Shown in pieces: positions 1,286 to 40,092 of a stretch of DNA of 64,000 nt. Below the pieces are notes generated by a model. The model was not told the origin of the DNA, did not search any database, and worked only from the letters and a program-made list of their open reading frames with translations. Within the stretch, counting starts at the first letter, position 1; each line of letters opens with the position of its first letter. The position numbers and the translations under genes are program-made. The DNA comes from Escherichia coli (GTDB lineage Bacteria > Pseudomonadota > Gammaproteobacteria > Enterobacterales > Enterobacteriaceae): assembly GCF_003334335.1 (NCBI RefSeq), contig NZ_QOWQ01000010.1, one strand, 5' to 3'.

Positions 1286-1330
1286 TAATTTCACTATTTT
1301 CAGAAGGATAATTAATCTTTCTACGTGCAC

Positions 1331-1384
1331 GAACGGTCCCCTCGCCCCTTTGGGGTGAGGGTTAGGGTGAGGGGAACCCGTTGG
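1331..1384. repeat. GC-rich imperfect palindrome (CCCCTCGCCCC...GGGGTGAGGG with a tandem second GGGTGAGGGG) between convergent tldD and aaeR
   Basis: gaacggtCCCCTCGCCCCtttGGGGTGAGGGttaGGGTGAGGGGaacccgttgg; pairs as an RNA hairpin with one G-U wobble; no flanking T-run. Confidence 0.6.
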
Positions 1385-1418
1385 CACAGGTTTGTACAAC
1401 GTAACAGTACAATATGAA

Positions 1419-9757: not shown

Positions 9758-11125
9758 TTAACGCATCAGCAGATAGATGCTTTCATTGCCGCGTACAATT
9801 TGCAGGGCGATGATGGCCGGTTTTGCCGCCAGCACTTTACGCATTTCAGCAATCGAGTTCACCCGATCGCGGTTGACGCCAATGATCACATCGTCTTTTT
9901 GCAAGCCAGCCTGAGCAGCTGGGCTTCCTTTGACAACTTCATCGATTTTAATACCTTTGCCGCCATCTTTTAGCTGACCATCGCTCAACGTTGCACCTTC
10001 CAGCGCTGGCGTGATCATTTCAGCGCTGGCCGACGAAGAGGTGCTGGTATCGAGCGTCACTTCTACTTCCAGTGGTTTGCCGTTACGCAGCAGGCCAAGC
10101 TTCACTTTCGTGCCCGGCTCGGTGGTCGCGATACGAGAGCGCAACTCAGCAAAGCTATTCAGCGGTTTGCCGTTGAGGCTGGTAATAATATCGCCCGCTT
10201 TGACGCCCGCTTTTGCCGAGCCAGAACCTGGCAACACTTCGCTGACAAACGCGCCACGCTGCACGTCAAGGTTGAAGGCTTTGGCGATATCGGCACTCAT
10301 CTCGGTGCCTTTGATGCCTAACAAACCGCGTTTGATTTCACCAAAGTCGATAAGCTGCTGCGCCAGTGTTCGCGCCATATTACTGGGGATGGCAAATCCA
10401 ATCCCGACGCTCCCGCCGCCAGGCGCAAGGATTGCAGTGTTGATGCCAATTAACTCACCGTTAAGGTTTAATAGTGCACCGCCGGAGTTACCGCGGTTAA
10501 TGGAAGCATCTGTCTGGATAAAGTTTTCCAGACCTTCAAGATTCAACCCGCTGCGGCCTAATGCGGAAACAATGCCAGAGGTGGCGGTTTGCCCAAGGCC
10601 AAATGGGTTACCGACCGCTACGGCAAAATCACCGACGCGCAATTTATCGGAGTCGGCAATAGCGATTTGCGTTAATTTGCTCGGGTTTTGAATTTGTAAC
10701 AGGGCGATATCGCTCTGGTCATCGCTACCAATCAGTTTTGCATCAAACTCGCGCCCATCATTGAGCTGAATACTGATTTTCTGTGCCTGATTAATCACAT
10801 GGTTGTTGGTCAGCACATAGCCTTTACTGGCGTTGATGATGACACCGGAGCCTAAACCTTCGAAGGGTTGTGCAGGTTGATCCGGTAAATCATCACCAAA
10901 AAACTTTTTGAATTCTTCCGGGATTTTCTGTCCCTGACTGGCCGTTCCTTCCACCCGTACGCTCACCACTGCCGGAAGCACTTTTTCCAGCATTGGAGCC
11001 AGACTGGGGAGAGGGGCCTGATCGGCAACCTGGCCTGGAATCGACGCGACGGCCTGAAATGACGCCGAGAGAGTTAACCCGACACTTAACGCTAATGCAC
11101 TCAACAGCTGGGTTTGTTTTTTCAT
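9758..11125 (-). CDS. degQ: periplasmic serine endoprotease DegQ (HtrA family)
   Basis: 455-aa product from the internal ATG (MKKQTQLLSALALSVGLTLSASFQAVA signal peptide); GNSGGAL motif and two PDZ regions. Confidence 0.9.
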   Translation of the reverse strand: MKKQTQLLSALALSVGLTLSASFQAVASIPGQVADQAPLPSLAPMLEKVLPAVVSVRVEGTASQGQKIPEEFKKFFGDDLPDQPAQPFEGLGSGVIINASKGYVLTNNHVINQAQKISIQLNDGREFDAKLIGSDDQSDIALLQIQNPSKLTQIAIADSDKLRVGDFAVAVGNPFGLGQTATSGIVSALGRSGLNLEGLENFIQTDASINRGNSGGALLNLNGELIGINTAILAPGGGSVGIGFAIPSNMARTLAQQLIDFGEIKRGLLGIKGTEMSADIAKAFNLDVQRGAFVSEVLPGSGSAKAGVKAGDIITSLNGKPLNSFAELRSRIATTEPGTKVKLGLLRNGKPLEVEVTLDTSTSSSASAEMITPALEGATLSDGQLKDGGKGIKIDEVVKGSPAAQAGLQKDDVIIGVNRDRVNSIAEMRKVLAAKPAIIALQIVRGNESIYLLMR

Positions 11126-39980: not shown

Positions 39981-40092
39981 CCCCGGCTAGACCGGGGTGC
40001 GCGAATACTGCGCCAACACCAGGGAAATCTTGGCTGCGCCGTAAATTATTATGATGAGTTACAAGGGCACAGCACTGTTTTTCAGGCCGCAC
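39972..40092 (-). ncRNA. arcZ: ArcZ (RyhA/SraH) Hfq-dependent small RNA, convergent with and overlapping the arcB 3' end
   Basis: Minus-strand reading GTGCGGCCTGAAAAACAGTGCTGTGCCCTTGTAACTCATCATAATAATTTACGGCGCAGCCAAGATTTCCCTGGTGTTGGCGCAGTATTCGCGCACCCCGGTCTAGCCGGGGTCATTTTTT matches my recollection of ArcZ; it ends in a GC hairpin plus U6 that overlaps the arcB stop codon. Ends are approximate. Confidence 0.75.

Follow-up and report, generated by a model that had tools for sequence, protein, structure and literature searches.

A BoxC copy between the convergent tldD and aaeR genes of Escherichia coli: a variable three-block motif on a constant stem-loop

What is the GC-rich hairpin repeat that sits between the converging tldD and aaeR genes of Escherichia coli, and which of its structural features, if any, matters there? 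The repeat was picked out in the window considered here, a stretch of 64,000 nucleotides of E. coli DNA (contig NZ_QOWQ01000010.1), by a first-pass annotation that suspected a catalogued class of E. coli intergenic repeat without naming it. The suspicion was sound: the class is BoxC, which appears in the tables of both Holder et al. (PMC4666352) and Kaplan et al. (PMC5100583). The best overall explanation, to which we assign a probability of roughly 0.8, is that the element is a BoxC copy whose stem-loop lies in the 3' UTR of the tldD mRNA and in that of the aaeR mRNA. The element has been described before; what is added here is a view of one locus across 5,426 genomes.

Position and Structure of the Element

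The genes tldD (metalloprotease TldD; 3' part at 1-1285, + strand) and aaeR (LysR-type activator; 1419-2348, - strand) are convergent, and their stop codons at 1285 and 1419 bound a 133-nt spacer in which the element occupies the 3' flank of both, just where it had been placed. The gene names are those of the RefSeq annotation of identical MG1655 DNA. On re-reading, positions 1331-1384 carry gaacggtCCCCTCGCCCCtttGGGGTGAGGGttaGGGTGAGGGGaacccgttgg, with the letters as originally quoted, but the unit reaches beyond these limits. Folds of both strands pair 1325 with 1387 in one long hairpin, DNA folds have the same shape, and the full BoxC unit is an imperfect palindrome of ∼63 bp at about 1325-1387 (+), composed of a core and the flanking inverted arms GTGCACGAACGGT and AACCCGTTGGCAC.

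The 36-nt core, CCCTCGCCCCTTTGGGGTGAGGGTTAGGGTGAGGGG (1339-1374, +), contains three blocks. Block 1 is the C-rich arm CCCTCGCCC (1339-1347), in which the G at 1344 accounts for the G-U wobble of the proposed hairpin and can equally be described as a G-T wobble or as a 'mismatch' triplet. Block 2 is the G-rich arm GGGTGAGGG (1353-1361), which reads GGGAGAGGG in other E. coli in the alignment. Block 3, GGGTGAGGGG (1365-1374), follows a TTA loop and is a tandem copy of block 2, as expected from the reported duplication of the right arm (GGGGTGAGGG tta GGGTGAGGGG, period 12). This duplicated arm is the third block that defines the BoxC family, and it is the source of the triplex and G-quadruplex potential of the element; in the purine-motif triplex that has been proposed, block 3 would supply the third strand.

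The hairpin is strong on either strand. For positions 1321-1395, the predicted RNA fold has an energy of -35.9 kcal/mol on the + strand (z -2.3), a value reached by 4 of 200 shuffles; on the - strand the energy is -32.2 kcal/mol (z -3.1), reached by none of 200. The three-block pattern has a single match in the window (1339-1373) and none in 100 dinucleotide shuffles. A regex scan finds a canonical G-quadruplex motif, GGGGTGAGGGTTAGGGTGAGGGG, at 1352-1374 on the tldD-sense strand, with four runs of three or more G separated by the loops TGA, TTA, and TGA. Four such runs, loops of 1-7 nt, and a C-rich region on the 5' side are what characterizes the HPG1 group of Kaplan et al., and all are present here. 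Elsewhere in the window there is just one further canonical G-quadruplex motif, GGGGATGGGAAAATCGGGGCATATTGGG at 49212-49239 (-), and it is unrelated to BoxC.

Two further sets of candidates were set aside. An open reading frame of 137 aa that crosses the element (1061-1474, -) is mechanical and overlaps the ends of both real genes. Matches resembling CCCCTC at 11007, 23622, 37412, and 55972 are single arms occurring at chance frequency (9 found versus 5.3 expected).

Identity with a Published BoxC Copy

The element is almost certainly one copy of BoxC, no. 14 of the 23 in K-12. Table 1 of Holder et al. 2015 gives 23 "TMECO" motifs for MG1655, of which no. 14 (type 'A mm', antisense, 3,390,529-3,390,494) is CCCTCGCCCCTTTGGGGTGAGGGTTAGGGTGAGGGG, a letter-for-letter match to 1339-1374 (PMC4666352). 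The positions agree as well. In NC_000913.3, aaeR ends at 3,390,449 and tldD at 3,390,583, such that window position x corresponds to 3,391,868 - x, and this mapping places 1339-1374 exactly on 3,390,529-3,390,494 of MG1655. Kaplan et al. 2016 enter this copy in group HPG1 as HPGQ no. 37, with the description aaeR 45 nt, midpoint 3390505, - strand, 67 nt tldD (PMC5100583). This exact BoxC copy is already known from its presence in two published tables.

Several likenesses accompany the shared coordinates. The element follows the three-block consensus CCCTCNCCC-N3-6-GGGNGAGGG-N3-GGGNGAGGG, has the TTA second loop of type A and one 'mismatch' triplet, and is intergenic like the rest of the family. 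It differs in block 2, which is GGGTGAGGG here in K-12 and GGGAGAGGG in nearly all other K-12 copies. The BoxC class is reportedly treated in the surveys of Bachellier and Hofnung, including that of Bachellier and colleagues in 1999. In the account that Holder et al. give of its history, the motif was first named BoxC in the 1990s and was found again by Hoyne et al. 2000 as the PIT (potential intrastrand triplex) element (PMC4666352). Kaplan et al. arrived at the same loci by a search for G-quadruplexes and read them as quadruplexes rather than triplexes (PMC5100583).

The wider family supports the assignment. When nine other single K-12 copies, without the tldD-aaeR copy, are made into an nhmmer profile, that profile matches the window at 1324-1381 (57.6 bits, E=3.9e-17; envelope 1323-1389). 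Aligned on the motif, these nine copies have in common a left flank of approximately GCAC-N3-4-ACGGTC and a right flank of G-GAA. The tldD-aaeR copy also has the family flanks ACGGTC and GAA. Left and right flanks are imperfect inverted repeats of each other, giving an aligned unit of ∼56-63 bp, and all ten copies are intergenic. No target-site duplication is visible across the ten. Rfam has no match at 1250-1450 at gathering thresholds, and a relaxed search of the same interval returns only chance-level hits (E 0.4-0.9). Gathering-level Rfam matches in the window are to the ArcZ sRNA and the greA leader, at 39985-40092 (-) and 61737-61858 (+), both expected as known E. coli features.

Copy Number and Distribution

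The first-pass annotation would have been in difficulty had its two sites been the only ones in the genome, and they are far from that. By BLAST, each of the 5,426 complete E. coli genomes has relatives of the 54-nt element; the median number of places in a genome is 17 (range 1-31; 19 in the MG1655 record), and only 49 of the 84,567 places are plasmid-borne. In K-12, 7 of 19 loci are in convergent spacers, a modest enrichment whose binomial P runs from 0.016 to 0.17 according to the background taken.

Holder et al. reported 3,610 copies in 262 proteobacterial genomes (PMC4666352). A scan of a genome collection with the TMECO pattern returned at least 120 stretches, nearly all from one Mitsuaria genome and a few MAGs. 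Among the matches listed, Mitsuaria chitosanitabida (Betaproteobacteria) has more than 100 copies of the pattern, which also occurs in a Methylomirabilota MAG, a Candidatus Contendobacter MAG, and an unclassified MAG (L009-L128); loci of the E. coli clade are absent from these matches. Many of the listed copies in distant bacteria form inverted pairs. Their E. coli-like blocks are imposed by the search pattern itself, and the loops and flanks are lineage-specific, as in the listed Mitsuaria copies with the loop GCTTGC and the right flank TCTTCGGG. The Methylomirabilota occurrence, which rests on a MAG, is outside the Proteobacteria of the 2015 report.

Length Variation of the Locus within E. 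coli

The tldD-aaeR spacer is polymorphic in length among E. coli genomes, and in the alleles compared the length differences are confined to the G-rich blocks. In the alignment, the flanks are almost invariant and nearly all changes fall inside the blocks. The three-block allele is found in K-12, O157, and AR_0085, with block 2 as GGGGTGAGGG in K-12 and GGGGAGAGGG in the others, and is matched at ≥95% identity in 2,026 genomes. An allele lacking 6 nt (7 nt in a variant), represented by FAM21845, ETEC1748, and WP5-S18, reads tct GGGG tta GGGTGAGGGG (2,688 genomes at ≥95% identity). An allele lacking 12 nt, represented by Ecol_542, reads tct GGGG tta GGGG (571 genomes at ≥95% identity). The three states account for ∼37%, ∼50%, and ∼10% of E. 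coli genomes, respectively, and in most genomes block 2 is cut to GGGG or gone. Because ∼60% of genomes lack an intact middle block, they have neither a three-block motif nor a four-run G-quadruplex at this locus.

Each deletion removes one GGGNGA unit between G-runs, which is the product expected of replication slippage. The tandem G-runs would be prone to slippage, generating the 6-nt and 12-nt deletion alleles. The hairpin, on the other hand, is kept by every allele examined, and the DNA folds all have energies of about -15 to -16 kcal/mol. The intact triplex/G-quadruplex motif is therefore the minority state at this locus and the stem-loop is the constant one. The allele series is a detailed example of the variability reported by Holder et al.: 39% of their TMECO locus-by-strain comparisons showed small changes in the intergenic sequence, versus <1% of controls (PMC4666352).

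Two other kinds of change were seen. Window position 1356, in block 2, is T in K-12 but A in other E. coli at this locus and in nearly every other BoxC copy of K-12. With T at this position (GGGGTGAGGG versus GGGGAGAGGG), blocks 2 and 3 are identical in K-12, and this identity may have arisen by conversion or slippage between the blocks. In a derivative of EPEC E2348/69 (NZ_LT903847.1, L008 4222-5775), the IS4-family element ISEc13 lies inside the BoxC element at about window position 1356, with ends CTGTCTCTTGATCAG... and ...TGTATAAGAGACAG and an apparent target duplication of CTGGGGTT.

The Same Spacer in Other Genera

A strong palindrome is present in the tldD-aaeR spacer of every lineage examined, and its origin differs each time. 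The 122-nt spacer of Salmonella (L139/L140) has REP-like palindromes, and a Citrobacter-like contig (L149/L150) has two of them. Pseudescherichia (L142/L143) and a lineage of ENA metagenome contigs (L152/L153) each have a plain GC-rich hairpin, and an Enterobacter asburiae-like contig (L144) has a two-arm hairpin with BoxC-like arms. In the lineage of a Logan contig (L151), the spacer contains an extra DUF1440 gene and a classical terminator hairpin next to tldD. The 49-nt spacer of Enterobacter cloacae is almost entirely a three-block BoxC (L141 2133-2175, E=1.4e-12). Its orientation is opposite to that of the E. coli copy and its flanks are unrelated, which implies independent acquisition or inversion.

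Escherichia albertii and Escherichia fergusonii were sought through the AaeR cluster as a means of dating the insertion; the members listed for that cluster were from E. coli, Shigella, and Salmonella only, with no true empty site among them. The recurrence of palindromes across lineages has two readings: either a stem-loop is wanted between the convergent genes, or the spacer is a safe landing site for palindromic repeats.

The stem-loop survives all of the E. coli deletions and is replaced by other hairpins elsewhere, and for these reasons we judge that the hairpin, rather than the potential to form a triplex or quadruplex, is probably the feature retained at the locus.

A Second Site between nanA and nanT

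The element was also said to recur at 19190-19224, and this is true in part. The site is real and has the same arms, but it is a degenerate two-block relative and not a second full copy. It is located between the nanA stop codon at 19185 and the nanT ATG at 19294 and reads TTT-CCCCTCGCTCGCCCC-tacc-GGGTGAGGGG-AAA on the + strand. The arms CCCCTCGC...GGGTGAGGGG and the position of the G-T pair are those of the tldD-aaeR element. Unlike that element, it has only two blocks, its flanks are TTT and AAA, and its sequence does not vary among K-12, O157, ST131, and other strains. Its fold is strong (-31.6 kcal/mol, z -5.4). Its match to the BoxC profile is weak (E=0.063, 8.9 bits), with the middle block absent from the alignment. 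The site is not among the 23 TMECO copies (PMC4666352) and does not show the three-block pattern, and Rfam gives nothing meaningful over it at gathering or relaxed thresholds.

In the nanA-nanT spacer of Pseudocitrobacter faecalis (L155 1601-1730), two BoxC copies forming an inverted pair begin directly behind the nanA stop codon, the first of type A and the second of type B with a mutated middle block. The first copy matches the profile with E=4.4e-11 and the second falls below significance. Given this pair, the E. coli hairpin is best read as probably a decayed BoxC, a suggestive assignment. Holder et al. describe a "palindrome effect" that reduces two paired copies to one simple hairpin, and decay of this kind would agree with it (PMC4666352). 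The alignment of the two spacers is patchy, with short common stretches by the nanA stop codon and before nanT and no clean deletion boundaries.

The same spacer contains a small hairpin, GTGGGC atc GCCCAC (19264-19286), directly before the Shine-Dalgarno sequence (GGGAG) and ATG (19294) of nanT. Salmonella and Klebsiella aerogenes have this hairpin as well as E. coli, with some bases of its stem and loop changed, and all three have the Shine-Dalgarno sequence; the Pseudocitrobacter stretch ends inside the hairpin, of which only the start is seen. The hairpin could be a translational or processing element for nanT.

Neutral Repeat or Retained Stem-Loop

The most serious alternative to a retained stem-loop is that the element does nothing at this locus and is simply a neutral or selfish repeat. 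BoxC copies would spread, perhaps by MITE-like transposition or by recombination, into spacers where their presence is harmless, and would then decay. We consider this possible but doubtful. Decay by deletion in ∼60% of genomes is what such a repeat would show, and ISEc13 entered the element in the EPEC derivative without disrupting the annotated flanking genes. The copy number varies from 1 to 31 places per genome, and the opposite orientation of the E. cloacae copy in the same spacer implies independent arrival. Hairpins in every lineage could likewise mean that these spacers are permissive insertion sites rather than that a hairpin is selected. Published tests of these elements, as they are summarized by Holder et al., found no function (PMC4666352). 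Against neutrality, every deletion leaves the stem in place, other genera have hairpins of unrelated sequence in this spacer, and the ten aligned copies show no target-site duplication. Nor do we know of a transposase or mobile-element association for BoxC.

REP and BIME sequences offer a useful comparison. They are also short GC-rich palindromes, dispersed, intergenic, and often downstream of genes, and REP-like sequences sit in the tldD-aaeR spacer itself in Salmonella. Their sequence is unrelated to that of BoxC, which is present in far fewer copies and carries the duplicated G arm. The enzyme family that mobilizes REPs is known, the RAYT transposases; we know of no mobilizing enzyme for BoxC.

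A variant that combines mobility with selection is that BoxC reaches the same 3' spacers independently in each lineage and is interchangeable there with REPs or plain hairpins. BoxC would then still move, as a non-autonomous element that depends on some mobilizing enzyme and favors 3'-end spacers; the stem-loop would be the selected part, and the triplex or quadruplex potential a by-product. The basis for independent arrival is the pair of opposite copies in E. coli and E. cloacae, together with the BoxC-type sequence after nanA in both E. coli and Pseudocitrobacter. We hold this variant to be unlikely.

Triplex and Quadruplex Potential

Another alternative is a DNA-level switch in the G-rich strand, which on unwinding would form an intrastrand purine-motif triplex or a G-quadruplex that regulates transcription or replication or is an evolved generator of local variation. 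Single-stranded TMECO oligonucleotides of consensus types A and B form very stable triplexes, with a Tm of 70-82 °C (PMC4666352), and circular dichroism gave evidence of a K+/Mg2+-dependent switch between quadruplex and hairpin (PMC5100583). At the present locus, the canonical quadruplex motif at 1352-1374 and the greater variability of TMECO loci relative to controls are in keeping with such a switch. However, the triplex was detected neither in double-stranded DNA nor by in vivo DMS footprinting (PMC4666352), the literature reports no link of these motifs to gene function or position, and the majority of E. coli genomes dispense with the intact middle block here. The triplex and quadruplex potential looks dispensable and slippage-prone, and a DNA-level switch at this locus is quite improbable.

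The account by Holder et al. of the work of Hoyne and Maher, whose 2002 study they cite, is that in vivo the elements acted neither as promoters nor as terminators and affected neither replication nor conjugation (PMC4666352). We know of no phenotype shown by experiment for any BoxC copy.

Transcript Ends

The earlier judgment that the hairpin lacks a U-tract and is not a classical terminator agrees with the present analysis. No T-tract follows the stem on either strand, the tails being AACCCGTT (+) and ACCGTTCG (-), and a terminator scan makes no call at the element. Intrinsic bidirectional terminators are similarly GC-rich hairpins between convergent genes, but the tldD-aaeR element has no flanking A-tract and U-tract, and BoxC has no reported terminator activity.

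For 58 MG1655 RNA-seq sets, ExcludonFinder lists 165 convergent pairs that show transcript overlap in half of the sets or more, and aaeR-tldD is one of these pairs (PMC12288877); the call is based on coverage and does not place 3' ends. This excludon fits both mRNAs running through the element. The TERMITe supplements have no Term-seq entry for tldD, aaeR, b3243, or b3244, and a search for a transcript 3'-end map of the tldD-aaeR spacer found none.

Thus, although a strong GC-rich hairpin lies exactly between the convergent genes and the L151 lineage has a classical terminator hairpin next to tldD, a bidirectional terminator, whether Rho-independent or acting by RNA polymerase collision, is very unlikely given the lack of a U-tract and of a terminator call, the absence of terminator activity in PIT elements as relayed by Holder et al. 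(PMC4666352), and the overlap of the aaeR and tldD transcripts (PMC12288877).

A Possible Role at RNA 3' Ends

We return to the favored reading, a BoxC copy that folds as a stem-loop in transcripts. Because tldD and aaeR converge on the element, it would lie in the 3' UTR of both mRNAs. REP stem-loops in 3' UTRs can protect mRNA. By analogy with these, the shared stem-loop would block 3'-to-5' exonucleases, and it would mark the region where the tldD and aaeR transcripts overlap without being an intrinsic terminator. A role of this kind at RNA 3' ends is tentative, with the odds somewhat short of even. A 2026 REP preprint to be compared on this point (bioRxiv 10.64898/2026.03.23.713779) makes no mention of BoxC or tldD.

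The three-block motif is intact at this locus in only ∼37% of E. coli genomes, and the stem-loop is always kept. The natural three-block, -6, and -12 alleles are suited to a direct test of what each feature contributes. Loss of the motif, together with the kept stem-loop and the unrelated palindromes elsewhere, indicates that any function of the element would lie in the hairpin, probably at the RNA level, and not in the exotic DNA structures that the literature has stressed.
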